64,000 nt of DNA from Kofleriaceae bacterium (GTDB lineage Bacteria > Myxococcota_A > Polyangia > Haliangiales > Haliangiaceae), in the NCBI GenBank assembly GCA_046597055.1, contig JBKJLC010000196.1, positions 1 to 64,000 on the forward strand, in the 5' to 3' direction. This document shows, piece by piece, positions 24,322 through 60,306 of the stretch. The notes below the pieces were generated by a model. It was not told where the DNA came from and did no database searches. It worked only from the letters and a program-made list of their open reading frames with translations. Position 1 is the first letter of the stretch. Every line of letters begins with the position of its first letter. The position numbers and the translations under genes were made by a program.

Positions 24322-26619
<2,298 letters not shown>

Positions 26620-26621
26620 GG

Positions 26622-27538
<917 letters not shown>

Positions 27539-27542
<4 letters not shown>

Positions 27543-28393: not shown

Positions 28394-28415
28394 GAGCGTT
28401 CTCCGGGTGCTGCGA

Positions 28416-30179
28416 TCAAGATGAGCGGGCTGCGGTCGAATCGTTGGCGGGCAGGGCGGCGAGTTCGGCCAGCGCGGCGGCGCGGGCGGTGCGGGCGCTG
28501 GTCGGCGCGACCGGGACGTGGACGACCCCGCCGCCGCCGGCGAGGGCGGCCCGGATCGCGGCCGGCAGCTCGTCCGGCGACCGGACCCGGGCGCCGACCA
28601 ACCCGAACGCGCGGGCGGCGGCGACCGCGTCGACCGCGGGCGGCGTGCGCCACAGGCGCTCGAACGCGCCGTCGGGCAGGGTGCTGGCGGCGACCGGCAG
28701 GTCGTCGAAGATGCGGCCGCCGCCGTTGTCGATGACGACGATCGCGAGGGGCCGGCCGCCGACGCACGCCAGCGCGCCGAGGTCGTGCGCGAAGCTGACG
28801 TCGCCCAGCACCAGCACGGTGGGCCGACCGGCCGCGGCGGCCCCGGCCGCGCCCGCGATCAGGCCGTCGATCCCGGCGGCGCCGCGCTGGGTGAGGACGG
28901 TGAGGTCGCGACCGCCGTCGGCGACCTCGTCGGCGACCCGCACCGGCAGGCTGTTGCCGAGCACGAGCTGGCCGCCGTCGGGCACCGCGCCGATCGCCGC
29001 GGCCACCGCGGCCCCCTCGGCGCCGGGGCTGACCAGCGCGCGGTCCATCGCGGCGCGGGCGGCGCGGTCGGCGTCGGCCCAGGCCCGGGTCCACGCCCCG
29101 CGCAGGCGCGGCGACGGCAGCGCGGCCACGATCCGGCCCAGCGTGTCGGCGACGTCGCCGAGCAGCACGGCCTCGGCGGTCGAGTCGCCGTCGGGCCAGC
29201 CGTGCTCGGCGAGCACGAACCGGCGCGCGCGGCCCGCCGCAAACCCGGTCCAGCCCATCGCCACCGGCTCGCCGCCGAGCTGGACGATGAGCTCGGGGCC
29301 GAGGTCGCGGGCGAGCGGCGCGCTCACCACCAGGCCGAACCGGTCGATCGCCACCACGTCGTCCGGGCGGGTCGCGAACCGCAGGCCGCTGCCGGCCTCG
29401 GCCAGCAGCGGATACCCCGCCCGGCTGGCCAGCGTGAACGCCGACGCGCGGGCGGCGGCGCGGGTGGCCGGGCCCGCGGTGGCGACGATCAAGCCACGCG
29501 GCGCCGACGCGATCGCGCTGGCGACCCGGTCGATCAAGCTGTCCGGAACCCGGACAGTCGCCGGCGCCACCGGCAGCGCGGTCTTGACCAGCCGGGCCGC
29601 CTCGGCCGCCGCGGCCCGCTCCGGCTCGGTCCCCGGCGCGGCCGGCTCGAGCGGCTTGCGCAGCGGCACGTTGAGGTGGACCGGGCCCGGCGTTGGCCCC
29701 CGCGCGGCGGCCACCGCCTGCGCCACCTTGCGCCGCAGCGCGCGCAGCGCCAGCGGCGAGCCCTCGGGCGGGCCCAGGTCGTCGAACCGGCGCACGAAGC
29801 CGCCGAACAGCCGCAGCTGATCGATCGTCTGCGAGGCGCCCGCGCCGTGCAGCTCGGGCGGGCGGTCGGCCGACACGATCACCAGCGGGATGCCGGCCAG
29901 CGCGGCCTCGATCACCGCCGGCAGGTAATGGGCGGCGGCGGTGCCCGACGTGCAGATCAGCGCGACCGGCGTCGCCGCGGCCCGGGCCAGCCCGAGCGCG
30001 AAGAACCCGGCCGCGCGCTCGTCGATCACGGGGTGCGCGCGCAGCAGCGCCTCGCGCGCCAGCGCCGCCACCAGCGGGGTCGACCGCGAGCCGGGGCTGA
30101 CCACCACGTCGGCGACGCCGGCGTCGGCCAGGCTGGCGAGCAGGAGCTCGGCCCACACCGTCTGGATCGCCGCGGTCAC
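28416..30179 (-). CDS. menD: SEPHCHC synthase (thiamine diphosphate dependent)
   Basis: [46 protein letters not shown]...NGGGRIF; GTGA overlap with menF. Confidence 0.95.
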
Positions 30180-31608
30180 GGCCGCGGCACCTCGTCGGCC
30201 TGGGCCGGGACCTCGGCCAGATCGACGTCGAGCCCGAGCGCGCCCGACAGCGCCCGCAGCTTGACCTCGGTCTCGGCCCACTCGGCGCTGGCGTCCGAAT
30301 CCCGGACGATGCCGGCCCCGGCATACAGGGTCGCGGTGACGCCCTCGAGCAGACCCGACCGGATCGCGACGGTCAGGTCGCCGTCGCCGGCGGCGTCGAA
30401 CCACCCGACCGGCGCCGCGTACCAGCCGCGCGCGGTCGGCTCGTGGCGCGCGATCCAGTCGAGCGCGGCCGCGGTCGGGGTCCCGCCCACCGCCGGGGTC
30501 GGGTGCAGCGCCGCCGCCAGCGCCAGCACGTGGCGCGGGGTGAACAGGGTGCCGTGCACCGGCGTGTGCAGGTGCAGCACGTGGCGCAGCGTGCGCACGG
30601 TCGGCGCCGCGGGCACCTCGAGCTGATGGCACCACGGCGCCAGCGCGTGCTCGATGGCACGCACGACCAGATCGTGCTCGCCGCGATCCTTGCTCGACGC
30701 CAGCAGCTCGGCCCCGGCCCGCGCGTCGTCGCCGCCGCGCGCGATCGAGCCGGCCAGCGCCTCGGCATCGACCTGGTCGCCGCGCCGGCGCACCAGCCGC
30801 TCGGGGCTGGCGCCGACGAACGCGACTCCGCCCCGGCGCACGCCGAACCGCGTGCACTCCGGGTGGCGGCGGCCCAGCTCGGCCAGCACCGCGGCCGCGT
30901 CGATCGGCCGGGCCAGCTCGACCCGGCGCGCCCGCGCCGCGACCACCTTGCGGCAGCGACCGGCGCCGATCTCGGCGCGGATGCCCTCGACCGCGTCGCG
31001 CCAGCGGCTCGGCGCCAGCTCGGCGCGCGCCACCGCGTGCCCACGCGGCTCGGGCAGGGGCGTGGCCAGCGCGGCCAGCGCGGCCGCCAGCTCGGCATGG
31101 ACGCGTCGGTGATCCCGGGCCTCGTCCGCGCCGAGCGCGACGGTCAACCAGGCACCGCCGCCGTGGCGCTGGTAGGTCCAGCGCGGCAGCACGAACCAGG
31201 CGTCGCCGAACGAGGCCCACGCCTCGCCGGCGCGCCCGGGGGTGAAGGCGAAGCCGCCGAGCAGCCGGGGCGCCGGGCCCCCGCCGATCGCGACCAGCCG
31301 CGGCCACAGCGCGGCGGCGCGCTCGGCCACCGTGGTGAAGCGGGCGGCGCCGTCGGCGCTGATCGCGGCGGCCACGCCGACGCCGGCGATCGCCAGCTCG
31401 GCATCGCGCGGCTCCCACAGCACCGCGTCACCGCCGAGCTGCCACAGCGCGGCGGCGTGGGCGACCGGCGCCGGCACCGCGATCACCGCGATCGCGTCGG
31501 CGGCCAGGCCGCTGGCCTCGACCAGCCCGCGCTCGAGCGCCGCCGCGGCGGGCCGAGCGCCCTGATCGAGCCCGCGCTCGACCAGCGCGGTGGCGGCCGG
31601 CGCCACGC

Positions 31609-31612
<4 letters not shown>
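30176..31612 (-). CDS. menF: Isochorismate synthase
   Basis: KVVAAR, GASPERL, ALAGS, KDRGEH, LHPTPAVGG, RGWYAAPVGW, YAGAGIV. Confidence 0.93.
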
Positions 31613-34726
<3,114 letters not shown>

Positions 34727-43833: not shown

Positions 43834-45207
43834 ATGCGCGGTGACCGCCGCGGCAGCCTCGGCCTGTGGTCGGGGGTCGGCATCGTGATCGCCAACATGA
43901 TCGGGGCCGGCGTGCTGACCACGCCGGGCTTCATGGCGATGAACCTGGCGCCGTCGCACATCTTGCTGGCCTGGCTGGTCGGCGGGGTGGGGGCGCTGGC
44001 CGGCGCCCGCGCCTACGCCGCGGTCGCCCACGCCATCCCGCGCTCGGGCGGCGAGTACCGGTACCTGTCGACCCTGTGGCACCCGCTGCTCGGCTACCTG
44101 GCGGGCTGGACGTCGCTCCTGGTCGGCTTCTCGCAGCCGGTCGCGCTCGACGCCCAGCTGGTCGGCTTCTACGTCGGCACGCTCGGGATCGACGTCCCCT
44201 GGCGGGTGGTGACGGTCGCGGTGATCGCCGGGGTGACGCTGCTGCACGCGGTGAACCTGCGCGCGTCGCGCCGCGGCCAGAACGTGCTGGTGGTGATCAA
44301 GGTCGTGCTGGTGGTCGGGTTCGTCGCGGTCGGGCTGGTGGCCGGGGCCAACGCGTGGCCGACCTGGCGTCCGGCGGCGGCCGCGCACGGGCTGCCGATC
44401 GCCCCGTTCTTCCAGTCGCTGGTGTTCATCGCCTTCTGCTACAGCGGCTGGAACGCGGCGATCTACGCCAGCGAGGAGTTCGCCGACGCGCGCCGCGACG
44501 TCCCGCGCGCGATGCTGATCGGCTGCAGCGTGGTGATCGTGCTGTACCTGCTGGTGAACTGGGTGTTCGTCGCCAACCTGACCCCGGCCCACTACGGCGC
44601 GTGGATCGGCGACGATCCCGACCGGATCACGCTCGGCCACGTCGTCATGCACGACATCGTCGGCGCCACCGGCGCCAAGATCATGTCGGTGTTCATGATC
44701 ATCGCGCTCTTGTCGGCGGCCAGCGCGATGACCATGATCGGCCCCCGGGTGTACGCGGCGATGGCGCGCGACGGCTATCTGCCGCGGGTGTTCGCCGGCA
44801 CCGACGGGCGGCCGCCGGTGTGGTCGGTGGTGCTCCAGGGCGCGATCGCGGTCACGGTGGCGATGACCACCAGCTTCATCAAGGCGATCGCCACGGTCGG
44901 CACCGTGCTGACGCTGATGGCCGCGCTCACCGCGCTCGGGGTGTTCAAGCTGCAGCTCGACGCCCGCCAGACCGAGAAGCCGGGGCCGTCGGCGCTGGTC
45001 GCCGCGACCGTCTTCGTCGGGCTGGCCGGCTGGATGTTGTACTTTGCGTTCACCAGCCCGCTGCTCAACACGGTGCAGTTGCCGGTCGTCGGCAAGGTGT
45101 CGTCGCCGCTGGTGTGGCTGGTCTTCATCGCGCTGGTCACGTTGCTGTACGCGGGCTGGGTCGCGGTGCGCGGGCCCCGGCCGGCGACGCCCGGCGACGA
45201 CCGGTGA
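43834..45207 (+). CDS. APC family amino acid permease
   Basis: ANMIGAGV, PRSGGEYRY, YSGWNAA, PRVYAAMARDG; about 12 TMs. Confidence 0.92.
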   Translation: MRGDRRGSLGLWSGVGIVIANMIGAGVLTTPGFMAMNLAPSHILLAWLVGGVGALAGARAYAAVAHAIPRSGGEYRYLSTLWHPLLGYLAGWTSLLVGFSQPVALDAQLVGFYVGTLGIDVPWRVVTVAVIAGVTLLHAVNLRASRRGQNVLVVIKVVLVVGFVAVGLVAGANAWPTWRPAAAAHGLPIAPFFQSLVFIAFCYSGWNAAIYASEEFADARRDVPRAMLIGCSVVIVLYLLVNWVFVANLTPAHYGAWIGDDPDRITLGHVVMHDIVGATGAKIMSVFMIIALLSAASAMTMIGPRVYAAMARDGYLPRVFAGTDGRPPVWSVVLQGAIAVTVAMTTSFIKAIATVGTVLTLMAALTALGVFKLQLDARQTEKPGPSALVAATVFVGLAGWMLYFAFTSPLLNTVQLPVVGKVSSPLVWLVFIALVTLLYAGWVAVRGPRPATPGDDR

Positions 45208-45249
45208 ATGACGGGCGGCGAGCCGGCGCCGGCGTGGCACACTGACCGC

Positions 45250-46092
45250 GTGCGCGCCGCCGTTCTCGCGCTGATCACGGTCGGGCTGGTCAGCCGCGCG
45301 ACGCCGGGGGTCGCCGAGCCGTGGGTCGAGCCGGACCCGGCGGCGGTGGTCGGCCGCTGGACCGGGCCCGCGACCTGGCGTCAGTGTGCGGTCACCGGTG
45401 AGGCCCGACCGGTCCTGGTGGTCGCACGCGACGGCGGCGGCTATCGGGTCGACCTCGCCGCCGCGCTCGACGGGCTGGGCACCGAGCTGCTGGCGCCGGT
45501 CGGCGGCCGCGAGCTGACCGCGACCCGCCACGACCTCACCGTGAGCTGGGTGCTCGGCTCGCCCGGCCACGCGCGGGTGCGGCTCGGCTTCGCGTCGGGC
45601 TGCGAGGGGACGCTGGTCCTCGCGCGCGACACCACCGGGGCCGCGGCCTGCGACGAGCTGGTCGCGCTGCGGGCGATCGCCGGAGGCTGTCCCGCGGCGA
45701 CCGTGCCCGCGACGGAGCCGCGCGCACCGCCCGGGCGCCGGCTGCGTGGCAAGCCGCTGGCGGCGCTGGCCGCGGGCTGTCGGCGCGACGCGGCGCCCCT
45801 GCGCGCGGGCCTGATCGAGGCCGGGTGCGTGCCGGCGCCGCTCCCGGCGATCAGCGCGACCACCCGCGTGCCCGAGTGCGACGCGCTGCTGGCATCGGTC
45901 GACCGGCTGATGCGGTGCGACCGGGTCCCGGTCGCGACCAAGCAGCGCCTGCGGATCGCGATGGGGCAGGTCGACCGCTGGGCCACCGCCGATCGCGACG
46001 ACGCCGAGGCCCGCCGCACCTCGGCGGCGACCTGCCAGGAGACCCGCGACGAGCTGGTCCGCACGATGGTCGTGCTCGGCTGCAGCCCCTGA
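45250..46092 (+). CDS. Hypothetical exported protein with two Cys-rich helical repeats
   Basis: Signal-like VRAAVLALITVGL; ACDEL...CP...GC...GC and ECDAL...CD...TC...GC; alternative start ATG 45208. Confidence 0.6.
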   Translation: MRAAVLALITVGLVSRATPGVAEPWVEPDPAAVVGRWTGPATWRQCAVTGEARPVLVVARDGGGYRVDLAAALDGLGTELLAPVGGRELTATRHDLTVSWVLGSPGHARVRLGFASGCEGTLVLARDTTGAAACDELVALRAIAGGCPAATVPATEPRAPPGRRLRGKPLAALAAGCRRDAAPLRAGLIEAGCVPAPLPAISATTRVPECDALLASVDRLMRCDRVPVATKQRLRIAMGQVDRWATADRDDAEARRTSAATCQETRDELVRTMVVLGCSP

Positions 46093-46252
46093 CCTGCGGC
46101 GCGAGCGGTGCACGGGTGTCACCGCGGCGCAGCACGGGTAAGCCGGCGGCGACAAGCGAGATCGGGGGCGATCGGGCCCCGATCAACGACGGGTAGCCCA
46201 AGGACAGGGCTCGCGCGTTTGTCTATCATCGACCCTTCACGGGGAGGCTTCC

Positions 46253-47785
46253 ATGACGATCAAGGGATGGACGGCGGCAGCGATCTGCGCCGTCCTGGCC
46301 ACGGTTCCGACCGCGGCCCACGCGTTCTGCGGGTTCTATATCAACGGTGCCGGCGGCGAGATGTTCAACAACGCGACCCAGGTCGTGCTGATGCGCCAGG
46401 GCACGCGGACGGTCCTGTCGATGCAGAACAACTACCAGGGACCGCCCACCGATTTCGCGATGGTGGTGCCGGTCCCGGTCGTCCTGCAGCAGGACAACGT
46501 CAAGACGCTGCCACACGACGTCTTCGCCAAGGTCGATCAGATGGGCGCGCCGCGCCTGGTCGAATACTGGGAGCAAGACCCGTGTCAGGTGATGGATCGG
46601 TTCGCCGACGACTGCCCCAACTGCGGGGCCATGCCCACCGGGGCACCCAGCGTGGCCATGGAGTCGGGCGCGGCTGACTACGGCGTCAAGATCGAGGCGC
46701 AGTTCGAGGTCGGCGAGTACCAGATCGTGATCCTGTCGGCCAAGGACGCGGCCGGGCTCGACGGCTGGCTGCGCGCCGAGAAGTACCAGATTCCGCCCGG
46801 CGCCGAGCCGCTGCTGCGGCCCTACGTCGAGAGTGGCATGAAGTTCTTCGTCGCCAAGGTCGACCCCAAGAAGGTCACCTTCGCCAAGGGGATGGCGACC
46901 TTGTCGCCGCTCCGCTTCCACTACGACAGCGAGGAGTTCTCGCTGCCGATCCGGCTGGGCCTGGCCAACTCGAATGGCACCCAGGACCTGATCGTCAACA
47001 TCCTGGCGCGGAGCCAGCGCTACGAGGTCGCCAACTACAAGAACGTCACGATCCCGACCAACCTCGACGTGAAGCCCGAGGCGCGGACCCGGTTCGGCGA
47101 GTTCTACGCGGCGCTGTTCGACCGCACGCTGGAGAAGAACCCGGGCGCGGTCGTGACCGAGTACGCCTGGGACGCGATGACGTGTGACCCGTGCCCGGGG
47201 CCCACGCTCGATGGCAGTGACCTGGCCACGCTTGGCACCGACGTGATCGGCGACGGCGCCGGGATGGTGCTGACGCGCCTGCACGCGCGCTACGGCGCGG
47301 CCGATATGAAGGAGGACCTGGTGTTCCGGTCCGGCTCGGCCATCGCGGGCGGCCGCGAGCTGCGCGGGTTCGGCGATCGGCTCGAGGAGCGGGCCAGTCC
47401 GTCCGACTACAACAACTTCCAGGGTCGCTACGCGATCCGCCACACCTGGGCCGGGCCGATCGTGTGCAAGGCGCCGGTGCGCGGCCGCTGGGGCGGACCG
47501 CCCGCCGGTCAGGAGCTCGCCGGGGGCGGCGCGCCGCTGGCCGCGACCAACGTCGCGTTCGCGCCCCGCGGGGCGATCGAGCTGCCGATGGTGGTGGTGC
47601 ACGACGTGCCCGAGATCGAGGTGAAGGCCGGCGAGGCGCTGCCGGCCGCGGCCGCCGCGGTCGACAAGAAGGCCTATCCCGGCTGCACGTGCGGCGCCGG
47701 GCGCGGCGGCGGCGCCGCGAGCGCGGTCGGTGGCGCGGTGGTGATGGGCGTGGTGCTGCGTCGCCGTCGGCGCGCGCGGCGCTGA
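46253..47785 (+). CDS. DUF2330 domain protein, paralogue 1, with MYXO-CTERM-like tail
   Basis: GGAGG RBS; signal peptide AHA|FCGFY; MQNNYQGPP, APRLVEYWEQDPC, PLRFHYDS, TEYAW, CDPC, LTRLHARY; tail GCTCG...VLRRRRR. Confidence 0.9.
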   Translation: MTIKGWTAAAICAVLATVPTAAHAFCGFYINGAGGEMFNNATQVVLMRQGTRTVLSMQNNYQGPPTDFAMVVPVPVVLQQDNVKTLPHDVFAKVDQMGAPRLVEYWEQDPCQVMDRFADDCPNCGAMPTGAPSVAMESGAADYGVKIEAQFEVGEYQIVILSAKDAAGLDGWLRAEKYQIPPGAEPLLRPYVESGMKFFVAKVDPKKVTFAKGMATLSPLRFHYDSEEFSLPIRLGLANSNGTQDLIVNILARSQRYEVANYKNVTIPTNLDVKPEARTRFGEFYAALFDRTLEKNPGAVVTEYAWDAMTCDPCPGPTLDGSDLATLGTDVIGDGAGMVLTRLHARYGAADMKEDLVFRSGSAIAGGRELRGFGDRLEERASPSDYNNFQGRYAIRHTWAGPIVCKAPVRGRWGGPPAGQELAGGGAPLAATNVAFAPRGAIELPMVVVHDVPEIEVKAGEALPAAAAAVDKKAYPGCTCGAGRGGGAASAVGGAVVMGVVLRRRRRARR

Positions 47786-47817
47786 CGCGGCGGTCGACGA
47801 TCACATCAGGAGCAGCG

Positions 47818-49403
<1,586 letters not shown>

Positions 49404-49407
<4 letters not shown>

Positions 49408-50993
49408 ACCGGGCGATGACGCGCGCGGTGCTGGCCGGGATGATGCTCGTGGCGACCGCGGGCACCGCCCAGGCCTTCTGCGGGTTCTACGTGAACGGCG
49501 CCGGCAGCGAGATGTACAACGACGCGACCCAGGTCGTCCTCATGCGGATGGGCACGCGCACCGTGCTGTCGATGCAGAACAACTACCAGGGGCCGCCCGA
49601 GGCGTTCGCGCTGGTCATCCCGGTGCCGACGGTGCTGCAGGAGGCGGACGTCAAGACGCTGCCGCGCGAGGTGTTCGGGCGGGTCGATCAGATGGGCGCG
49701 CCGCGGCTGGTCGAGTACTGGGAGGTGGACCCGTGCGGCCGGCCCTACCAAGAGGACGGCCGCGTGAGGAGGGCGGAGAGCGCAGGCGGGCCGCGTCCGA
49801 CCACGTCACGACCGGCCAACGGCCATGGCGTCACGGTCGAGGCCCAGTTCGAGGTCGGCGAGTACCAGATCGTGATCCTGAGCGCGAAGGACGCGGCCGG
49901 GCTCGACACCTGGCTCCGCGCCGAGAAGTACCAGATCCCGCCCGGGGCCGAGCCGTACCTGCGGCCGTACGTCGAGAGCGGGATGAAGTTCTTCGTGGCC
50001 AAGGTCGACCCGAAGAAGGTCAGCTTCGACGCCGACCAGCGGGTGAAGCTGTCGCCGCTCCGGTTCCACTACGACAGCGAGGAGTTCAACCTGCCGATCC
50101 GGCTCGGCCTCGCCAACTCGAGCGGCACCCAGGATCTGATCGTCAGCATCCTGGCGCCCAACCAGCGCTACGACGTCGCCAACTACAAGAACGTCACCAT
50201 CCCGACCAACCTCGACGTCAAGGACGAGGTCCGCGACCGGTTCGGCGAGTTCTACGCGGCGCTGTTCGATCGCACGATCGAGAAGAACGTCGGCGCGGTG
50301 GTCACCGAGTACGCGTGGCAGGCGAGCACGTGCGATCCGTGTCCGGGCCCCAATCTCGGCGGTGGCGACTTCGCGACGCTCGGGGCCGACGTCCTGGCCG
50401 GCGCACCCGGCAAGCCGGCGCCGTACCAGGGCTGGGACCTGGTGCTGACCCGGCTCCATGCGCGCTACGGCAAGACCGTCACCGAGGACCTGGTGTTCAA
50501 GCAGGCCGACCCGATCGTTGGCGGCCGCGAACACCTGCAGGCCAGCGGCAAGCTGGAGGAGCGATCGCAGCCGTCGGGCACCAACAACTTCCAGGCCCGC
50601 TACGCGATCCGGCATCCGTGGACCGGCGAGATCACCTGCAAGGACCCGGTGCGCGGTCGCTGGGGGGGGCCGCCGGCCGGGGTCACCGGCGGTGGCGTGA
50701 AACCGGCGCTCGACCTGGCGTTTGCGCCGCGCGGCAAGGCGGCGCTGGCCCAGCTGGTCGGTCAGGACATCCCCGAGCTCGCGATCAAGGCTGCCGGCGG
50801 GCTGCCGGCGACCGCCGGGACGCCGCCGGCGTCGCCCGGTCAGACCCGGCCGCCAGCTGGGACGTCTGACCCGGGAACCAAGAAGAAGACCGGCTGTGGC
50901 TGTTCGTCCGGTGGCCCCGGCGGCAAGCTCGCCGGGGCCGGCACCGGCCTCCTGCTGCTCGCGCTGGTGTCACGTCGTCGTCAACGCACCTGA
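49404..50993 (+). CDS. DUF2330 domain protein, paralogue 3, with MYXO-CTERM-like tail
   Basis: ATGA overlap; AQA|FCGFY; tail KKTGCGCSS...LLLLALVSRRRQR. Confidence 0.9.
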
Positions 50994-51006
50994 GACCGGA
51001 GGAACC

Positions 51007-52605
51007 ATGCAACCCATCGTGATCCTGAGACTGGCCGCTCTCGTCGGCGCGGTGGTATGCGCCGCGCCCCAGGCGGCCGATGCTTTCTGCGGCTTCTACA
51101 TCAATGGTGCTGGCAGCGAGATGTTCAACGACGCGACGCAGGTCGTGATGATGCGCAAGGGCACGCGCACCGTGCTGTCGATGCAGAACAACTACCAGGG
51201 GCCGCCGGCGGCGTTCGCGATGGTGATTCCGGTGCCGACAATCCTGCAGGAGGCCGACGTCAAGACGCTGCCAAAGGACGTGTTCGGGCGGGTCGACATC
51301 ATGGGCGCGCCGCGGCTGGTCGAGTACTGGGAGCAGGACCCTTGCGGACGAGACGACTGGGATCGTCGCGAGCGCCGCATGCCGCTGAAGCGGAGCGCGC
51401 CGCCCGCGATGGGCATGGCCGGCGCGACGGCGGAGGACCTCGGGGTGACGGTCGAGGCGAAGTTCGAGGTGGGCGAGTACCAGATCGTGATCTTGAGCGC
51501 GAAGGACGCGAGCGGGCTCGACACGTGGCTGCGGCGCGAGCAGTACCAGATCCCGAAGGGGGCGCAGCCGTTCCTGCGGCCGTACGTCGAGAGCGGGATG
51601 AAGTTTTTCGTGGCGAAGGTCGACCCGAAGAAGGTGGCGTTCGACGCCGACGGGCGAGCGGCGCTGTCGCCGCTGCGGTTCCACTACGACAGCGAGGACT
51701 TCAACCTGCCGATCCGGCTGGGGCTGGTGAACTCGAGCGGGACGCAGGATCTGATCGTGAGCATCCTGGCGCCCAACCAGCGCTACCAGGTCGCGAACTA
51801 CCAGAACGTGACGATCCCGACCAACCTCGACGTGCGCGACGCGGTGCGGACCAGCTTCGGATCGTTCTACGCGTCGCTGTACGACGCGACGGTGAAGAAG
51901 CACCCGGGCGCGGTGGTGACCGAGTACGCGTGGGCGGCGTCGACCTGCGATCCCTGTCCGGGGCCGACCCTGGGCGGCAACGACTTCGCGCTGCTCGGGG
52001 CCGACGTGCTCGAGGGCACCACCGCCAAGCCGGCGCCGTACGGCGGCTGGGACTTCGTGCTGACCCGGCTGCACGCGCGCTACGGCAAGAACATCAGCGA
52101 GGACCTGGTGTTCAAGGTGGCCGATCCGATCGTCGGTGGCCGCGAGCAGCGGGGCAGCGGCGGCCGGCTCGAGGCGCGCGCGCAGGTGTCGAGCATCAAC
52201 AACTTCCAGGCCCGGTACGCGATCCGGCACTGGTGGACCGGCAGTATCACGTGCAAGGCGCCGCGGCGTGGGGTGTGGGGCGGACCGCCCAACGGCCGCG
52301 GGGTCCGGCCGACGCCGGCGCTCGGCCTGGCGTTCGCCAAGCGCGGCAAGAGCCTGCCGGGGCTGCTGGTCTCGAACGTGCCGGAGATCGGGATCAAGGC
52401 CTACCGCAAGAAGCCCAAGCCGAAGGCGGCCAAGCCACCGCCGGCGCCGCCCCGGCCCGCGGTCGAGGCGCCCGACCCGACCGTGAAGGGCGCGCCGATG
52501 GGAGCCCTGCGTCAGGGCTGCAGCACGGGTGGGACGCCGGACCTCGGCGCGCTCGCGGCGGTGGCGGCGATGCTGGTGGCCACGCGCCGCCGGAAGCGGA
52601 GCTGA
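51007..52605 (+). CDS. DUF2330 domain protein, paralogue 4, with MYXO-CTERM-like tail
   Basis: GGAGG RBS; ADA|FCGFY; tail QGCSTGG...AMLVATRRRKRS. Confidence 0.9.
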   Translation: MQPIVILRLAALVGAVVCAAPQAADAFCGFYINGAGSEMFNDATQVVMMRKGTRTVLSMQNNYQGPPAAFAMVIPVPTILQEADVKTLPKDVFGRVDIMGAPRLVEYWEQDPCGRDDWDRRERRMPLKRSAPPAMGMAGATAEDLGVTVEAKFEVGEYQIVILSAKDASGLDTWLRREQYQIPKGAQPFLRPYVESGMKFFVAKVDPKKVAFDADGRAALSPLRFHYDSEDFNLPIRLGLVNSSGTQDLIVSILAPNQRYQVANYQNVTIPTNLDVRDAVRTSFGSFYASLYDATVKKHPGAVVTEYAWAASTCDPCPGPTLGGNDFALLGADVLEGTTAKPAPYGGWDFVLTRLHARYGKNISEDLVFKVADPIVGGREQRGSGGRLEARAQVSSINNFQARYAIRHWWTGSITCKAPRRGVWGGPPNGRGVRPTPALGLAFAKRGKSLPGLLVSNVPEIGIKAYRKKPKPKAAKPPPAPPRPAVEAPDPTVKGAPMGALRQGCSTGGTPDLGALAAVAAMLVATRRRKRS

Positions 52606-52763
52606 TGAGCGAGGTCGGTCTGCGACGCCGGGCCCCGATGCTGGCGCCGCTGCGCGCGAGCACCGGCGGCCGCACCAGCGGCCGCGCCGACCGGGGCGCG
52701 CGGGCCGGGCTGGCAACCGTGGCGGCGATCACGCGGCGTCGTCGGCGCGACCGCCCGGCGTGA
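52605..52763 (+). pseudogene. 52-codon ORF resembling a degenerate copy of the paralogue 4 C-terminal tail
   Basis: TGATG overlap; APMLAPLRASTGG...ATVAAITRRRRR versus APMGALRQGCSTGG...AAVAAMLVATRRRKR. Confidence 0.35.
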
Positions 52764-52776
52764 GCGGGGCAGTAGG

Positions 52777-55077
52777 ATGACGGCGATGGCTCACCGGTGG
52801 TGCGTGCTGGTCGGGGTGGCGGCGCTGGGCGCGTGTTCGGGCTCCGGCAGCCCGGCCGGGCCGCCGGTGATCGGGGGTGGGAGCGCGCCGATCGACGCAC
52901 CGACCGCGGCGATCGAGGCCAGCCTGCCGCGCGCGCCCGGCCGGTTCGCCCCGTCGCTGGCGGCGATCGAGGGCGGCGGCACCATCGACGGCAACCAGCT
53001 CGGAGACATCGATACCTGCGAGACCTGCCACAGCGCGGTCACCAGCCAGTGGAAGTCGGGGATCCACTCGTTCGCGTCGTTCGGCAACCCGATCTACCGG
53101 TTCAACGTCGAGCTCGCCCGGCGCGAGCTCGGCAAGCGCCAGAGCCAGCACTGCGGCGGCTGTCACGACATGCCGCTGCAGGTCGACGGCGCGATGCTCG
53201 CCGAGGTCCAGGCCGACGACCTGCGCGCCCACACCGGGGTGTCGTGCCGCGTCTGCCACGCGATCCGGGCCGCCACCACCGACGGCAACGGCAGCTACAC
53301 GCTGTCCGCGGGCGAGCTGCCGACCCCCAACGTCGACGATCCGGCCTCGGTCGCGCGCCATCGCGCGGCGGTGACCGTGAAGCCGCTCGGCAGCGAGCTG
53401 TGCGTGTCGTGTCACCGCGGCTTCCTGTCGCCCGACGTCGACGTGCCGGTCCACCTGTCGGGCATCGACGAGCCGACCGCGTGGCGGAGCTCGCCGTACA
53501 CCGGCAACGGCATGGCCCGGGTCGACCAGGTCGAGCCGCAGGACTGCATCGGCTGCCACATGCCCGAGGTCGCGGTCGGTCCCGACCAGTACGCCGGTGA
53601 CGGCAAGGTGCGCGCGCACTGGTTCGCCGGGGGCCACACGTGGATGGCGTCGATGCGCAACGATCCGGCCCAGCTCGAGCGGATCCGGGCGATGCTGCGC
53701 GGCGCCGCGTCGATCGATATCGCCGGCGCGATCCTCATGCGCGACCTGGCCGCGCCGATCGGGACCGGTCGTGGTCCCGACACCGTCGGCGGCCGCTGGC
53801 ACCTGCCGGCCGATGCCGCGCCGGTCGGCCCCGGCCAGCGGATCCTGCTCGACGTCGTCCTGCGCAACCGGCTGGTCGGTCACCGCTTCCCGGGGGGCGT
53901 CAACGACATGCAGGACACCTGGGTCGAGGTCGAGGCGCGCGCTGGCAGCGGCCGGCTGCTCGCCAGCTCCGGGCTGCGCCACGAGCACGACCTCACGGAC
54001 GACGAGACCCACGTGCTACGCGCGTATCCGGTCGATCAGCACGGCCACATCCAGGAGGAGCACGAGCTGCCGCGCTTCCGCGCGATCATCGCCAACCACA
54101 CGCTGGCGGCGCGCGAGGCCCAGGCGGTCCGCTACGTCCTCGTCGTGCCGGTCGGCGCGGCCATGCCGATCGAGGTGCGGGCTCGCCTGCGCCATCGCAG
54201 CCGCGGCCTGCTGGCCCAGCGCGCGGTGTGCGCGGAGGCGCGGACCAAGGTCGGCGCGACGTTCCTGCGCCAGGCCGAGGAGATCCGCGACATGACGGTC
54301 GACCCGTGCAAGCCGCAGCCGGTGACCGAGATCGCGCGCACCGTGACCTGGATCGGCGACGGGGCCGCGGCCGCGATCGCCCGGGCCGGTGCCGCGGCCC
54401 GCGCCGACAGCGGCGCCGCGCCCGGGCAAGCGTGGGAGCGCAGCTACGAGCACGGCATGGCGCTGACCTCGGTGGTCACCGAACGGCTCGACGAGCCGCG
54501 CCAGGTGCTCGAGCACGCGCTGGCGCTCCTGCCGGTGTCGGCCGAGACCGCGCGCAGCCGCGCCATGGTGCTGGTCCAGCTGGGCGTGGTCGCCTCCCGC
54601 CAGGGCCGCACCGAGGACGCGCTGGGCCTGCTCGACCAGGCGCGCGCCCTCCTGCCGGCGCCGCAGCCGCCGGTGCTCGACGCGGTGGCCGCCGACGCGC
54701 TGGCCCGGGTCTGGCGCTGGGCCGACGCCACGCCGTTCGCCCGTGCCGCCGCCGCCAAGGCGCCGGCCAACACCAACGCGTGGGTCATGCTGGCGCGCAT
54801 CCTCGGCAGCGCCCACGACAACCACGGCGCGCTGGCGGCGGCGCGCGCCGGCCTGGCGCTCGCCCCGCGCGACGCCGACCTCCTGCGCAGCCAGTCGGCC
54901 GCGCTCGCCGAGCTGATGCCGGGCAGCCCGCTGGCCGAGCAGGCGCTGGCCGCCTACGACCGGTTCCGCGCCCCCGACAACACCGCCGCCCTGCGGATCG
55001 CATGCGCGGCGGAGAGCCCGCGGTGCGCGCGGGAGCGGGAGATGGGGCACTTGCACGCGCTGACGCCCGCGCGGTGA
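52777..55077 (+). CDS. Pentaheme c-type cytochrome lipoprotein with C-terminal TPR-like repeats
   Basis: Lipobox LGAC; five CxxCH (CETCH, CGGCH, CRVCH, CVSCH, CIGCH); VGHRFPGG; helical repeats at the C-terminus. Confidence 0.88.
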   Translation: MTAMAHRWCVLVGVAALGACSGSGSPAGPPVIGGGSAPIDAPTAAIEASLPRAPGRFAPSLAAIEGGGTIDGNQLGDIDTCETCHSAVTSQWKSGIHSFASFGNPIYRFNVELARRELGKRQSQHCGGCHDMPLQVDGAMLAEVQADDLRAHTGVSCRVCHAIRAATTDGNGSYTLSAGELPTPNVDDPASVARHRAAVTVKPLGSELCVSCHRGFLSPDVDVPVHLSGIDEPTAWRSSPYTGNGMARVDQVEPQDCIGCHMPEVAVGPDQYAGDGKVRAHWFAGGHTWMASMRNDPAQLERIRAMLRGAASIDIAGAILMRDLAAPIGTGRGPDTVGGRWHLPADAAPVGPGQRILLDVVLRNRLVGHRFPGGVNDMQDTWVEVEARAGSGRLLASSGLRHEHDLTDDETHVLRAYPVDQHGHIQEEHELPRFRAIIANHTLAAREAQAVRYVLVVPVGAAMPIEVRARLRHRSRGLLAQRAVCAEARTKVGATFLRQAEEIRDMTVDPCKPQPVTEIARTVTWIGDGAAAAIARAGAAARADSGAAPGQAWERSYEHGMALTSVVTERLDEPRQVLEHALALLPVSAETARSRAMVLVQLGVVASRQGRTEDALGLLDQARALLPAPQPPVLDAVAADALARVWRWADATPFARAAAAKAPANTNAWVMLARILGSAHDNHGALAAARAGLALAPRDADLLRSQSAALAELMPGSPLAEQALAAYDRFRAPDNTAALRIACAAESPRCAREREMGHLHALTPAR

Positions 55078-55544
55078 TGGCGCCGACGCGAGCGGCCACC
55101 ACCCGGTGGTGGGGCGGCCTGGTCACCGTGGGGCTGCTCGCCGCGGTGGCGTGGCCGGTCACCCGGGCGCCGCTCGCCGGCGACAGCTTCCCGCTGTCGA
55201 CCTACCCGATGTTCGCGGCGCCCCGGGTCGGCGGGCGGGTCGCGATCGACTACGTGATCGCGTTCGGGCCGGATGGCGCGCGCCGCCACGTGCCGCCGGC
55301 GCTGGTGGTCAACCCCGAGGTGATGCAGGCGATGATGACGATCCGGCGCGCGGTCCAGCGTCGCGAGGCGCCGGCGCTGTGCGCGGAGGTCGCGGCCCGG
55401 CTGGCCGGCGATCCGCGGTTCGCGGCGATGGACACGGTCGCGGTGGTGTTCGGCGATCACCGCGCCGCCGCCTACTTGCTCGACGGCGTGCGCGGCACCG
55501 AGCGCGAGCACGCGCGCTGCCCGATCCCGCGGGGGCCGCGGTGA
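55077..55544 (+). CDS. Small single-TM protein, partner of the HTTM protein
   Basis: TGATG and GTGA coupling on both sides; TM then DSFPLSTYPMFA; two Cys. Confidence 0.75.
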   Translation: MAPTRAATTRWWGGLVTVGLLAAVAWPVTRAPLAGDSFPLSTYPMFAAPRVGGRVAIDYVIAFGPDGARRHVPPALVVNPEVMQAMMTIRRAVQRREAPALCAEVAARLAGDPRFAAMDTVAVVFGDHRAAAYLLDGVRGTEREHARCPIPRGPR

Positions 55545-56431
55545 TCGAGCGCGTCCTCGCCGGGTGGTTTCGGCCGGTGCCGGCGGCGCGGCTGGCCGCG
55601 CTGCGCCTCCTGGTCGGTGGCTTCGCGCTGGGCTACCTGGTCGCCCGGCTGCCGATGTGGCTCGGCCTGGCCCGGTTCGCGCCGCGTGATTTTCAGCCGC
55701 TCGGGGTGGTCGCGCTGGTGCTCGAGCGGCCGCTCGGCGCGGGCGCGATCGTGGCGCTCACGGTCGCGACGATCGGCCTGGCGGTCACGTTCGTGGCCGG
55801 GGTCGGGCACCGGGTGCTGGCGCCGCTGTTCGCGGTCGCGCTGCTGGGGCTGACCAGCTACCGCAACTCGTGGGGCATGCCGTTCCACACCGAGAACCTG
55901 CTGGTGCTCCACGTCCTCGTGCTGGCGCTGGCACCGGCCGCCGATGCCTGGTCGGTTGACGCCTGGCGACGACCAGCGCCGGCCGCCGAGCGCTCGGGCT
56001 GGCCGCTCCGACTCATGGCCGCGATCACGATCCTGACCTACGTGCTCGCGGGCATCGCCAAGCTGCGGCTGGGCGGGCTCGAGTGGGCCCAGGGCGTGGC
56101 GCTGCGCGATCAGGTCGCGGTCGACAACCTGCGCAAGCTCCTGCTCGGCGCGTCGACGAGCCCGATCGCGATGCCGTTCCTGCGCCACCCGTGGCTGTTC
56201 GAGGGCCTGGCGATCGGGACCCTGGTGGTCGAGCTGGGCGCGCCGCTGGCGCTGCTCGGTCGTCGGCTCGCGTGGGCGTGGGCGCTGGCCGCGTGGGGCT
56301 TCCACCTCGGCGTGCTGGCGCTGATGACGATCGTCTTCCCATACTCGCTCGGGTTCCTCGCCTACGCGCCGCTGTTCGCCTGCGAGCGGCCGCTGGCGTG
56401 GCTCGGCGCGCGGCTGCGTCGCCGTCGGTAG
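55541..56431 (+). CDS. HTTM domain membrane protein (vitamin K-dependent gamma-carboxylase-like / SdpB-like)
   Basis: PAARLAALRLLVG, WSVDAW, WPLRLM, YVLAGIAKL...W..G..L, VELGAPL, FHLGV. Confidence 0.8.
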   Translation: MIERVLAGWFRPVPAARLAALRLLVGGFALGYLVARLPMWLGLARFAPRDFQPLGVVALVLERPLGAGAIVALTVATIGLAVTFVAGVGHRVLAPLFAVALLGLTSYRNSWGMPFHTENLLVLHVLVLALAPAADAWSVDAWRRPAPAAERSGWPLRLMAAITILTYVLAGIAKLRLGGLEWAQGVALRDQVAVDNLRKLLLGASTSPIAMPFLRHPWLFEGLAIGTLVVELGAPLALLGRRLAWAWALAAWGFHLGVLALMTIVFPYSLGFLAYAPLFACERPLAWLGARLRRRR

Positions 56432-56451
56432 CGACCGGGATCAGCGGGCGA

Positions 56452-58698
56452 TCAGAACGCGCCGCGCACGCCGAGGGCCGGGACGAACGGCAGGTCCTCG
56501 ATGGGCTGGCGGTTGGTGAAGTCGTAGTTGTACGAGTAGCCGAGCACGCGGGCGTGGGCGTAGACGTTGGTGACGTCGAGGTACGCCGACAGGTTCCACG
56601 ACCTGAACTTCCACCGGCGGTCGACGCGGACGTCGAGCTGGTGGGCGCTCTCCATGCGGGTCGAGTTCACCGCGCCGTACTGCGGGATGTACGCGTTGAG
56701 ATCGGCCAGGTAGATCGAGCCGACCACCGGGGTCTGCGGCTGCCCGGTGGAGTACTGCCACTTGCCGCCGAGCTCCCACGCGCCCAGCCGCCAGCTGGCG
56801 ACCGCGAGCAGGTTGTGGGTCTGGTCGAAGTCGAACAGACGGCGGTCGAGCATCGGCCCGTCGATCCGGTCCGAGCGCGAGAAGGTGTACGAGATCCAGC
56901 CGAAGAACCGGTCGGCCCTGGCCTTGACCAGGTACTCGGCGCCGTACGAGCGGCCGACGCCGCGGTTGACGTACTGATCGATCGGCGAGGTCTCGGCCAG
57001 CAGGGGATCCTGGACCAGCAGCTCCGAGCGGCGGGTGTAGAAGCCCGAGCCCGACGCGGTCAGCACGTCCGACAACCGGACCTCGGCGCCGGCCACGTAC
57101 TGGGTCGCGAGCTCGGGATCGATGTTGGTCGGCACGCTCTCGGCCTGCTCGAAGCCGCGGCTGTAGCGGCCGACCGCAGCGCGCAGCGTGAGGTCGCGGC
57201 CGACCTCCTGGGTCAATTGCAGGCGCGGCGCGAAGGTGGTCGCGCTGATGTGGTCGTAGCGATCGACGCGGCCGCCGAGGCTGACCGTGGTCGAGCTGGT
57301 CGGCCTGAGGTCACCGGCCAGGTACGTGCCCAGGACGTCGTTGTTGTTCTCGAGCATGTACGTGACCAGCGGCGCGCTCGAGAAGTTGCTGGGCGGCGGC
57401 TGCCCCTCCTGCGGCGGCGCCGGGAAGCGCACGTTCAGCTCGCGCGGATTCCAGCGGCCCTCGACGCCGGCCCGCAGCCGGAGCCGCGGATGGAGCTGCC
57501 AGGCCACGTCGTCGCGGACCTCGGCCGTGAACTGGTTCGCACGGACGTAGCGATCGGCGCCGATCTCGACCCGGAAGCCGGTGGTGCCGGTCGAGGCGAC
57601 CAGGCGGTTGGAGAGCTTGCCGACCGTCTTGCTCCACTGCGCGATCGCACGGGTGAACGAGGTCTCGTTGTCGAAGCCGGTGAAGTCGGGCTCGTTGGGA
57701 TCGAGGTTGTCGTTGACCAGCGACAGGAGATCGAAGCTGGTGAACGCGAGCAGCGACAGCCGGTCGCCCTCGCTGCGGCGCCAGTCCACCCGGACCTGGG
57801 CGTCGTAGTACTGCGGCGCGGTCGTGAAGTTGACGGTGTCGGGCACCACCGCCGGCAAGATGAAGTCGATCAGCGACCGACGCGCGGCGGCGGTCAGGGT
57901 CAGACCGTGCTTCAGCGAGAGCGGGGTCTGGATGAACGCGGCGATGTTGATGAACGACAGCTCGGCGAAGCCGGTGGTGTCGGGCGCCGCCTCGGCGCGT
58001 GTGACGACGTTGATGACGCCGCCGGTGGCGCGACCCTCCTCGGCGCCGAAGCCGCCCGGCGAGAACTCGATGTTCTGGATGAACTCCGACGGCAGCACGC
58101 TCTGCAGTCCGAAGAAGTGGTAGAGGACCGGCACCTCGATGCCGTCGATCGTGATCTTGGAATCCTCGGGCGCCGCGCCGCGGATCACGATCAGGCCGGG
58201 TCCGGACCCGCCGCCGCCGCCGAAGGTGTTGGCGACGCCGGGGAGCGACCGCACGGCGGTGAGCGCGTCGCCGCGGGTACCGGGGATGCGCGTGATCACC
58301 TCGCGGCCGAGGTCCTGGCGACCGACGGTGGGCGGCACCGGCGCCTCGTCCTCGACTTCGATGGTCTCGACCGCGGCGCCCGGCCGGTAGACGAGCAGGA
58401 TGTGCTCGGTGAGGCCGCCCGCCGGGACCGCCACATCCTCGAATGAATCCTCATAACCCGGGGCGCGGACGGTGAGCGCGGCCGTGCCCGGCGGCACGTC
58501 GAGCTTGAAGGCACCGGCGCGGTCGGTCTTCACGGTCGTGCCGTCGGGCGCGCTCACCGTGGCGCCGCGCACCGGTGCGAGCGTCAGCCCATCGAGGACG
58601 TTACCAGCCAGCGGATCGGCCCACGCTGGCCCGGCGGCGAGCGCGACCAGCGAAGTCAGCGATGACGCGACCAGAACCACCAAGACGGAGCGCGTCAT
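56452..58698 (-). CDS. TonB-dependent receptor with N-terminal carboxypeptidase-like domain
   Basis: Signal peptide; plug motifs IPGTRGD...LPGV, IRGAAPEDS, IDG, GGVINV; barrel ending LGVRGAF. Confidence 0.92.
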   Translation of the reverse strand: MTRSVLVVLVASSLTSLVALAAGPAWADPLAGNVLDGLTLAPVRGATVSAPDGTTVKTDRAGAFKLDVPPGTAALTVRAPGYEDSFEDVAVPAGGLTEHILLVYRPGAAVETIEVEDEAPVPPTVGRQDLGREVITRIPGTRGDALTAVRSLPGVANTFGGGGGSGPGLIVIRGAAPEDSKITIDGIEVPVLYHFFGLQSVLPSEFIQNIEFSPGGFGAEEGRATGGVINVVTRAEAAPDTTGFAELSFINIAAFIQTPLSLKHGLTLTAAARRSLIDFILPAVVPDTVNFTTAPQYYDAQVRVDWRRSEGDRLSLLAFTSFDLLSLVNDNLDPNEPDFTGFDNETSFTRAIAQWSKTVGKLSNRLVASTGTTGFRVEIGADRYVRANQFTAEVRDDVAWQLHPRLRLRAGVEGRWNPRELNVRFPAPPQEGQPPPSNFSSAPLVTYMLENNNDVLGTYLAGDLRPTSSTTVSLGGRVDRYDHISATTFAPRLQLTQEVGRDLTLRAAVGRYSRGFEQAESVPTNIDPELATQYVAGAEVRLSDVLTASGSGFYTRRSELLVQDPLLAETSPIDQYVNRGVGRSYGAEYLVKARADRFFGWISYTFSRSDRIDGPMLDRRLFDFDQTHNLLAVASWRLGAWELGGKWQYSTGQPQTPVVGSIYLADLNAYIPQYGAVNSTRMESAHQLDVRVDRRWKFRSWNLSAYLDVTNVYAHARVLGYSYNYDFTNRQPIEDLPFVPALGVRGAF

Positions 58699-58806
58699 TT
58701 AGCCCTCAGTGTGGCGAGGCCGCACGATCCGTCAAGCACCGGTCGCTGCGGTATCAGGGCGCATGTGGTTTCGTCACCTGGCCCACGGTTCGCATAGAAG
58801 CTGGTC

Positions 58807-60306
58807 ATGCCCGCCCCGATGATCGGAAACTACATCATCAAGCGGCTGCTCGGTCAGGGCGGCATGGGCGCGGTGTACCTGGCGGAGCACGCGCTGCTGG
58901 GACGGCCGGCCGCGGTGAAGATCCTTCTGCCGACCGTCTCCTCCGAGGAGGAGATCGTCCAGCGGTTCTTCGACGAGGCCCGCGCGACCACGTCCATCAA
59001 CGATCCGGGCATCGTGCAGGTGTTCGACTTCGGCTACCACGTCGATGGCAGCGCCTACATCGTGATGGAGTATCTGGACGGCGAGACGCTCGACATGCGG
59101 CTCGAGCATGAGGGTCCGCTCCAGGCCATCCCGGCCCTCCGCATCGCGCGCCAGGTGGCGATGTCACTGCATGCCGCCCACCTGCGCGGCATCGTGCACC
59201 GCGACCTCAAGCTCGAGAACGTCCTGCTGGTCACCGACCCGGCAGTCCCGGGCGGCGAGCGCGCCAAGATCCTGGACTTCGGCATCGCGAAGCTGTCGCG
59301 CGACGAGGGGCGCCACTCGCGCACCCGCACCGGGTCGATCCTCGGCACGCCGATCTACATGTCCCCCGAGCAGTGCCGCGGCGCCCACGACGTCGACGGC
59401 CGCGCCGACATCTACGCGCTCGGCTGCCTGCTGTTCTGCCTGGTGACCGGCCGCCCGCCGTTCGACTACCCGTCCAACGCCGAGGTCATCGCCGCGCACC
59501 TCAAGGAGGCCGCCCCGCGCGCCTCCAGCCGCGCGCCCGGGCTGGCGCCCGAGGTCGACGAGATCATCGCGAACTGCCTCGCCAAGGACCCCAACCGTCG
59601 CTACCGGTCGATGGCCGAGCTCGCCGCCGACATCACGGAGTTGCTCACGGTCACCGACCGCTCGATCACGTCGCCGCCGGTGGGACGGCCGTCGTCGCGC
59701 CGCCGGCGCCCGACCACGCTCTCGAGCGCGATCCGCTCGCCGCTCCTCAAGAGCACCAGCCCGACCGCTCCCACCGTTCATGGCCCCCGGCGCGGCCGGA
59801 TCGCGATGTTCGGCAGCATGTCTGCCGCGGTCCTGACGCTCCTGGTGGCGGCCGGCGCGACCTGGCGCCGCGACGCGCGGGCGCTGCCGGGCCCGACGAG
59901 CGACAGCGCACAGATGAGCGAGACGGCTCAGGGTGCGCCCATGCCACGCGCAGTGGAGGTCACCGCGGCCCGGACGCCCATGGGCGCAGGGTTCGTCCCG
60001 GTGGGTCTGCCCGTGGCCGACACCCTGAGCGCGGCCACCGCGCTCGACGAGTCGGCGACGCACGACGAGGCGTCCCTGGACGATGTCACCGTCGAGCCTT
60101 CGGCCTCCTCCGAGTCAGCTGAGCGGGTCCAGGTCCGCCTGGTGAAGCGTACTCGGCCGGTCCGCGCGGGCGCCACGTCGTCGCGTCCGGCATCCTCGCA
60201 GGTCGCCGCGCCGCGGGCACGGCGAGTGCTTCCTGATGGACCTCGTGATGTCAGCCCGACCACTGCCCCGGTCCTCCGTGTTCGCGATGTCGACCGCGGC
60301 GACTAA
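58807..60306 (+). CDS. Hanks-type Ser/Thr protein kinase with TM and low-complexity extracytoplasmic tail
   Basis: LGQGGMGAVY, AVK, HRDLKLEN, DFG, GTPIYMSPE, DIYALG; TM IAMFGSMSAAVLTLLVAAG. Confidence 0.95.
   Translation: MPAPMIGNYIIKRLLGQGGMGAVYLAEHALLGRPAAVKILLPTVSSEEEIVQRFFDEARATTSINDPGIVQVFDFGYHVDGSAYIVMEYLDGETLDMRLEHEGPLQAIPALRIARQVAMSLHAAHLRGIVHRDLKLENVLLVTDPAVPGGERAKILDFGIAKLSRDEGRHSRTRTGSILGTPIYMSPEQCRGAHDVDGRADIYALGCLLFCLVTGRPPFDYPSNAEVIAAHLKEAAPRASSRAPGLAPEVDEIIANCLAKDPNRRYRSMAELAADITELLTVTDRSITSPPVGRPSSRRRRPTTLSSAIRSPLLKSTSPTAPTVHGPRRGRIAMFGSMSAAVLTLLVAAGATWRRDARALPGPTSDSAQMSETAQGAPMPRAVEVTAARTPMGAGFVPVGLPVADTLSAATALDESATHDEASLDDVTVEPSASSESAERVQVRLVKRTRPVRAGATSSRPASSQVAAPRARRVLPDGPRDVSPTTAPVLRVRDVDRGD

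Follow-up and report, generated by a model that had tools for sequence, protein, structure and literature searches.

Three genes that overlap end to end in the genome of a Kofleriaceae bacterium raise the question of whether they encode one machine or have only been inherited side by side. They lie in a window of 64,000 nucleotides (GenBank assembly GCA_046597055.1, contig JBKJLC010000196.1, positions 1 to 64,000 of the forward strand; genome completeness 94%, contamination 7.6%) and are all on the + strand. Gene 1 (52777..55077) encodes a pentaheme c-type cytochrome lipoprotein of 766 aa, gene 2 (55077..55544) a small partner protein of 155 aa, and gene 3 (55541..56431) an HTTM membrane protein of 296 aa. 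A sequence-only reading of the locus had treated the trio as a unit, and the genes, their motifs, and the TGATG (genes 1/2) and GTGA (genes 2/3) overlaps are all in the sequence as it noted. We hypothesize that the locus probably holds two independent extracytoplasmic modules, placed side by side by an old gene order that survives in part of one myxobacterial family: module A, the cytochrome with the DUF2330 proteins encoded upstream of it, and module B, the small protein with the HTTM protein. The family appears Kofleriaceae-like from the names of close homologues, whose records belong to Myxococcota and bear the names Kofleriaceae, Haliangiales or Myxococcales.

The trio that had been taken as a unit rarely recurs as a neighborhood. 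Across 147 genomes of the same order, the HTTM gene is found in 96, the cytochrome in 120 and both in 88, and the three genes are adjacent in 17 of these 88, from four genera only, among the matches listed (33 cytochrome matches are unlisted). In another 25 of the 88 the cytochrome and the HTTM gene are apart, meaning that more than 3.5 kb of sequence lies upstream of the HTTM gene, a rule that leaves the remaining 46 genomes undecided. For adjacency, cytochrome coordinates were scripted for 29 genomes and the others were matched on contig number by eye; the tallies include two unpublished genomes (G336 and G337), and no claim depends on those two alone. In a class-wide sample of 151 genomes, 37 have the cytochrome and 25 the HTTM gene; both occur in 15, the cytochrome only in 22 and the HTTM gene only in 10. 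The trio is adjacent in three of the 15, all from the genus of the source genome, and never outside its own family among the genomes searched.

We infer that the trio is an inherited gene order, which exists because the genes sit in a longer block that was later broken between the cytochrome and the small gene. The upstream side of the block carries a trypsin-PDZ protease, a hydrolase, a permease and the DUF2330 copies; downstream of the HTTM gene come a 3D-domain gene, BlaI, a BlaR1-like gene, a thioredoxin-like gene and a RegB-like kinase. In the largest genus the block is split exactly at that point and each half retains its own unrelated neighbors (loci L082-L090 compared with L099, L102, L104 and L109). 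One locus without module A has the permease immediately before the small gene (L077), and another has the cytochrome without module B (L066). The TGATG overlap between the cytochrome and the small gene occurs in 0 of 7 related loci, all seven having gaps of 26-94 bases, and the -4 overlap between the small gene and the HTTM gene occurs in 33 of 44 called pairs (starts from our own gene caller). The pentaheme protein had been proposed as a third subunit of the HTTM pair, a claim at odds with its standing apart from the pair in most genomes and with the unconserved overlap. Overlaps as such carry little weight because short ones are common in the source genome, where 169 of 732 same-strand neighbors overlap by -1 or -4 when genes are called roughly on 25 contigs. 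At L082-L090 the pair is preceded by a TonB C-terminal-domain gene and followed by BlaI, a BlaR1-like gene, a thioredoxin-like lipoprotein, and a RegB-like kinase with its regulator.

Module B is a fixed pair. The small gene stands upstream of the HTTM gene in all 47 loci found (44 through a gene call and three through a profile, one of these frameshifted) and in 16 of 16 further-listed loci, which possibly overlap the 47. The view of genes 2 and 3 as a split HTTM pair is thereby upheld, and the pair resembles a split version of the vitamin K-dependent carboxylase GGCX. Gene 3 matches the HTTM model PF05090 (56.5 bits, cut-off 27.7, E 4e-15), contains the motif YVLAGIAKL..W and the subfamily motif DNLRK, and its family profile recovers human GGCX (E 1e-4). 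Lys174 aligns with human Lys218, as expected of the proposed catalytic Lys, and is kept in 45 of 46 homologues; Trp182 aligns with Trp223. Glu231, His255, Met262, Ile264 and Phe266, mapped to GGCX Asp263, His287, Phe294, Ile296 and Phe299 by way of the source genome's own full-length homologue, are invariant in 46 of 46 sequences. The equivalent of Ala214 is also kept, and the invariant His116 is probably GGCX His160, where HMMER set the gap differently. All these equivalents come from sequence alignment and not from superposition. Papers on GGCX describe the roles of its vitamin K and pocket residues (bioRxiv 2025.02.09.637231, PMC12647623, PMC13486548), a D263E variant that retains 25% activity (PMC13486548), and the stacking of CO2 by Phe299 (PMC12647623).

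The glutamate side of the site is different. At the places aligned with the Glu-pocket residues Asn158, Asn159 and Tyr395 stand Gly112, Phe115 and Pro39. The conservation predicted for the quinone pocket holds for the vitamin K equivalents; it does not extend to the glutamate pocket. Because those residues are not kept, the expectation of a +44 Da modification is weakened. Module B also has no propeptide-binding domain, and no third conserved gene at the loci could supply one.

The small protein consists of an N-terminal helix, a DSFPLSTYPMF motif, and a beta-alpha-beta domain, with two invariant Cys (102 and 148). It belongs to an unnamed family of at least 385 sequences, matches no Pfam or NCBIfam family, and gives no PF22777 hit. 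When compared with the C-termini of 17 full-length bacterial gamma-carboxylases, it aligns colinearly over 97 columns that cover their last helix and lumenal domain (P 2.3e-4), and the profile score of 30.5 stands against at most 15.1 for 30 shuffles and a reversed P of 0.38. The alignment places Tyr43, Met45 and Phe46 on GGCX Trp399, Met401 and Met402, and Met45 is kept in 159 of 159 sequences. This suggests that the small protein probably corresponds to the part of GGCX made up of its last transmembrane helix and lumenal domain. Three natural fusions, in which a domain like it follows the HTTM, surfaced among weaker HTTM hits (L023, L026, L027). The top individual hit has E 6e-4 and the profile comparison P 6e-9, a value that is partly circular because the fusions were chosen partly with that profile. 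Longer fused forms of the small protein were absent among 8000 protein-collection candidates, which is weak evidence. A PDB sequence search with the small-protein profile returned nothing significant, the ESM Atlas places the protein in unnamed clusters only, and the family was not found described in the literature searched (most subscription papers and supplements lay outside its scope).

One locus joins the pair to menaquinone synthesis. At L080:2-7989 (G440) the small and HTTM genes end a men operon on the same strand, in the order menF, menD, menH, menB, menA, probable menC, menE, and the pair starts 18 bases after menE. The window has a menaquinone operon of its own at 24322-32358, with menF, menB and menE identified by NCBIfam, and menD and menA assigned from the annotated homologues with which they cluster; menH was not identified in it. 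The stretch 24322-34726 as a whole is led by a polyprenyl synthase and HMG-CoA reductase, and its menC and menE appear fused as one 765-aa ORF.

We propose that module B is most likely a split, menaquinol-using enzyme of the GGCX type and not a classical Glu carboxylase. The obligate pairing, the conserved Lys, and the weak profile homology suggest that the two proteins would assemble as a GGCX-like enzyme. Such an enzyme would bind menaquinol, which Lys174 would deprotonate; reaction with O2 would then yield a strong base and an epoxide, as in GGCX. The base would act on an exported or lipid substrate, and not on a propeptide-guided protein glutamate.

The source genome has other relatives of the pair. 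Contig C104:11731-28535 (partly L070) carries two full-length genes for HTTM plus lumenal domain, one between an imelysin gene and a TonB-dependent receptor and the other after similar-looking genes, and a VKOR gene is present in the genome. Contig C57:328-2443 holds a second split pair, in which a 144-aa gene with the motif RFAWRMF overlaps an HTTM-TPR fusion; the 144-aa protein is nearer to full-length GGCX (P 5e-6). More distant HTTM proteins at L022:1186-2835 and L024:1489-2841 are preceded by small genes with WPFxxYPM/FPM motifs and end in a C-terminal CxxC domain that we take to be DCC1-like. Beside the pair itself, a TonB-dependent receptor (6 loci) and a rhomboid (3 loci) were dropped as partners, being too sporadic. 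A fatty acid hydroxylase/desaturase gene after the HTTM gene at L046:10382-11566 recalls the viral epoxidase-desaturase pairing.

The cytochrome of module A carries five CxxCH motifs, at residues 81, 126, 157, 209 and 257, and a lipobox, LGAC20, whose Cys column is kept in 28 of 31 homologues. Its structure model (pLDDT 82, pTM 0.84) shows a heme cap and Ig-like stem of the c552/MccSep type at residues 69-526, followed by a C-terminal TPR domain. Foldseek matches the model to the pentaheme c552 fold at E 5e-9, and Thermochromatium cytochrome c552 (5ZE8) superposes with Z 16.4 and rmsd 3.8 over 338 of 385 residues. The TPR-like repeats read earlier from the sequence are borne out as helices of the model (about 550-735), though every Pfam TPR hit falls under its cut-off. 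Invariant in all 31 homologues are His97, His195, His281, His369, Asp231, Asp377 and Asp380, and the four His would ligate four bis-His hemes. The Cys of the heme 4-5 linker is absent in 30 of 31, and position 375, aligned with Sec325 of MccSep, is V, T, A or L in 31 of 31; this alignment was made by eye, with the D-G-U-P given in the preprint and with the loop of 5ZE8 as guides. The named families of NCBIfam score below their cut-offs (NrfB 29.7 of 166.6 bits, ExtKL 14 of 250 bits). Because the catalytic Cys and Sec are not kept, the cytochrome is built on an MccSep-like scaffold without being a member of MccSep. A shorter five-CxxCH lipoprotein paralogue without the TPR domain is encoded at C51:24442-25803 of the source genome.

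Four DUF2330 genes stand upstream of the cytochrome in the window, all on the + strand. Copy 1 (46253..47785) has a signal peptide, the mature N-terminus FCG, a CDPC motif and a C-terminal anchor; copies 2 (47818..49407, start taken from the translation), 3 (49404..50993) and 4 (51007..52605, searched as 50998-52605 with three additional N-terminal residues) follow it. Of the three copies tested against the MYXO-CTERM model TIGR03901, copies 3 (26.7 bits) and 4 (20.9 bits) pass the cut-off of 20, and copy 2 scores 18.7. The DUF2330 proteins that accompany the cytochrome have a signal peptide, a mature N-terminal Cys (43/45), CDPC (43/45) and MYXO-CTERM. Array size varies, from four here to seven in G150 (L069:2732-14205), with up to 15 matches per class-sample genome.

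DUF2330 and the cytochrome go together across genomes. Every one of the 37 class-sample genomes with the cytochrome has DUF2330, against 78 of 151 overall, and a close subtype, defined post hoc by a gap in E-values (<=4e-56 against >=2e-38), occurs in 36 class genomes, 34 of them with the cytochrome. DUF2330 is immediately upstream of the cytochrome in at least 23 of the 37 genomes, from nine families (counted by eye from the listed coordinates, with 145 matches unlisted), and the gap is at most 20 bases in 15 of 24 loci; exceptions to adjacency include five genomes from genus g7. The DUF2330 proteins had been put forward as substrates of the HTTM pair, and because the cytochrome's steady companion is DUF2330 they are better read as its partners. 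A complex prediction for cytochrome residues 56-530 with copy 4, which excluded the TPR domain and hemes, gave no answer (score 0.00, mark 0.32). In the ESM Atlas DUF2330 falls in unnamed clusters only. Neither its link to the cytochrome nor any paper on DUF2330 was found in the same literature, and the tables of a DUF-screen preprint could hold a DUF2330 pair.

The genomic coupling and the fold together suggest that MYXO-CTERM-anchored DUF2330 works with the pentaheme-TPR lipoprotein in a thiol- or sulfur-linked redox partnership. We propose that four bis-His hemes would pass electrons to heme 2, at whose distal site the Cys and Sec of MccSep are missing, and that DUF2330 may be engaged by the TPR domain or the heme face of the cytochrome. 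No electron transfer between modules A and B would be needed.

Between copy 4 and the cytochrome lies an ORF of 52 codons (52605..52763, +), joined to copy 4 by TGATG, with a hydrophobic stretch and RRRRR at its end. It has no family match, its end resembles a MYXO-CTERM tail, and it is possibly the relic of a lost DUF2330 copy. A sigma-70-like promoter match at 46201..46229 (+) is the sole match in 45000-59000, where 0.3 are expected by chance; being a consensus match only, it would fit a single transcript that spans DUF2330 copy 1 through the HTTM gene.

Several observations weigh against two modules of this kind. In the class sample the cytochrome and HTTM genes co-occur above independence, with an odds ratio of 7 and a Fisher p of 3e-5; p is inflated by kinship, and 19 of the 25 HTTM genomes come from two families. 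Adjacency of the trio is common to distantly related genera (cytochrome identity 46-50%), and at this locus the genes of both modules may be on one transcript. For module B, the profile probability linking the small protein to GGCX is just 45%, and the three fused domains compared directly with the GGCX alignment gave no match (P 0.58). The structure model of the small protein (pLDDT 89) found nothing in Foldseek at E <= 0.001, and in a wide VIA search its best Z was 5.2, to an unrelated phosphodiesterase; GGCX was listed in neither. The menaquinone link suggested earlier gained an independent genomic case in L080, which is 1 of 47 loci. In the loci and alignments examined no substrate was identified for either module. 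How these points bear on the alternatives is weighed below; those for module B could hold within the two-module reading, and the likelihoods we attach to them do not compete with its own.

Module B may be a true vitamin K-dependent carboxylase that acts on Glu or Asp and whose substrate site, as in MloH, is remodelled; we regard this as possible but doubtful. The equivalents of K218, W223, D263 (as Glu), H287, F299, M401 and probably H160 are near-invariant, and the small protein provides the 393-404 segment that is absent in viral epoxidase-only forms (PMC13486548). The changes of N158, N159 and Y395 to Gly, Phe and Pro and the missing propeptide-binding domain speak against it, although the pocket losses are not decisive because the full-length bacterial homologue at L070 is also without Tyr395 and Arg436. 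A candidate partner would be F10, an unnamed membrane-anchored family of 650-800 aa (about 750 aa) with the motifs PGLDG, RxAGT, YWxxFFxEExWxC and IRIDxVQH, and the commonest neighbor of the pair outside the source genome's own family (for example L032:9884-12124, L038:9981-12173 and L046:6478-8730). Of 20 loci, 7 have F10 flanking the pair; in one family, 11 of the 13 genomes with the HTTM gene have it immediately upstream, and three families in all have it beside the pair. However, it is common regardless (82 of 151 class genomes), and in the source genome it is on a different contig from the pair (C229:10496-12472). It matches no Pfam or NCBIfam family, and a hint of squalene-hopene cyclase is weak (E 0.54).

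It is unlikely that module B keeps the fold and the Lys without quinol chemistry, as a membrane maturation factor, a base catalyst or a scaffold. HTTM proteins do occur in peptide-maturation clusters whose mechanism is not established (SdpAB, linaridin; PMC9927463, PMC5719810), and the small protein has no fold match to GGCX. Against this, the positions at which GGCX touches vitamin K are conserved over both chains, the pair closes the men operon in L080, and no precursor peptide (SdpC-like) gene recurs beside the pair among the loci, where genes below 70 aa were not called.

We think it quite improbable that all three genes form one machine, in which the HTTM pair would exchange electrons with the pentaheme protein and the TPRs recruit a DUF2330 substrate, with an ancestral link later scattered: the adjacent, co-directional genes of the 17 genomes, the positive co-occurrence, a possible shared transcript and the fusion of another HTTM of the source genome to TPRs (contig C57) favor it, and the genomes with only the cytochrome or only the HTTM gene, the confinement of adjacency to one family among the genomes searched, the break before the small gene with unrelated neighbors staying on each side, and the unconserved overlap do not. 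We give still less credence to DUF2330 as the missing catalytic subunit of the cytochrome, in which its N-terminal Cys or CDPC would give in trans the sulfur that MccSep provides in cis to heme 2. The two proteins would then form a thiol/sulfur oxidoreductase at the cell surface, with tandem copies that vary specificity, and in lineages with the whole operon it would be coupled through the menaquinone pool to a split vitamin K-dependent enzyme that would modify exported proteins.

Returning to the two-module reading, the majority of bacterial proteins related to the vitamin K-dependent carboxylase have no assigned function, and module B would be a compact two-chain version of 451 aa in total. 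It has lost substrate recognition but still has the quinol-activating residues, and so offers a small test case for bacterial quinol/O2 base chemistry. DUF2330 would gain its first specific partner, a pentaheme protein from a fold family for which polysulfide reduction was recently demonstrated, though it lacks the catalytic residues of that family. Both points are based on genomics and alignments, and both functions are predicted.

Compared with known systems, module A would be a new partnership on a known fold, and module B a variant of a known architecture. Like c552 (5ZE8), Geobacter MccSep/ExtKL, the PHCs of cable bacteria (PMC11976967) and PtdA (bioRxiv 2023.11.21.568154), the cytochrome has a helical cap with five CxxCH and an Ig-like stem; unlike them, it is a lipoprotein with a C-terminal TPR domain and is coupled to DUF2330. 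MccSep/ExtKL reduces polysulfide; four of its hemes are bis-His ligated, its heme 2 has His and Cys as ligands, and it carries Sec325 (bioRxiv 2025.11.18.688581), whereas our cytochrome is without the heme 4-5 linker Cys (30/31) and has Val/Thr at the aligned Sec325 site.

Module B shares the HTTM domain with GGCX and its full-length bacterial homologues (HTTM plus PF22777; MloH), and keeps the equivalents of Lys218, Ala214, Trp223, His287, Phe299 and Met401, with Asp263 as Glu. It differs in being two chains (296 and 155 aa) in reversed gene order, in lacking the propeptide-binding domain and Asn158/Asn159/Tyr395, and in a small chain without a PF22777 hit. SdpB of Bacillus is related to HTTM, and control matches of PF05090 in B. 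subtilis are consistent with this. The likeness drawn earlier to SdpA/SdpB survives in the layout, a small gene and then a membrane gene, and not in the families: module B matches neither PF17418 nor TIGR04033, both of which are positive in B. subtilis. SdpAB is the older two-gene case (PMC5719810), its names being used also for unrelated staphylococcal proteins (PMC13559823).

A pair of DUF5819 and HTTM-DCC1 has already been proposed as split and GGCX-like, the prediction being that the two together restore a menaquinol pocket like that of GGCX, at which partner residues Leu59 and Phe60 stand (bioRxiv 10.64898/2026.08.19.745780). Like it, module B joins a small membrane-anchored partner to an HTTM protein; unlike it, the HTTM protein has no DCC1 domain and carries its own DNLRK motif. 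None of 17 aligned small-protein members matches PF19136 (DUF5819), and the source genome has no match to it, though no control genome passed the cut-off either. Split GGCX-like pairs (DUF5819, SdpAB) are thus known; within the literature searched, the small partner family and the DUF2330-pentaheme link appear to be new. Truncated gamma-carboxylase-like proteins of giant viruses have been proposed to epoxidise vitamin K without carboxylating (PMC13486548). Module B resembles them in an HTTM-only chain that has Lys218 and carries Glu where GGCX has Asp263, but where the viral proteins are entirely without the 374-418 segment and are tied to a desaturase, in module B a second gene would supply that segment in remodelled form.

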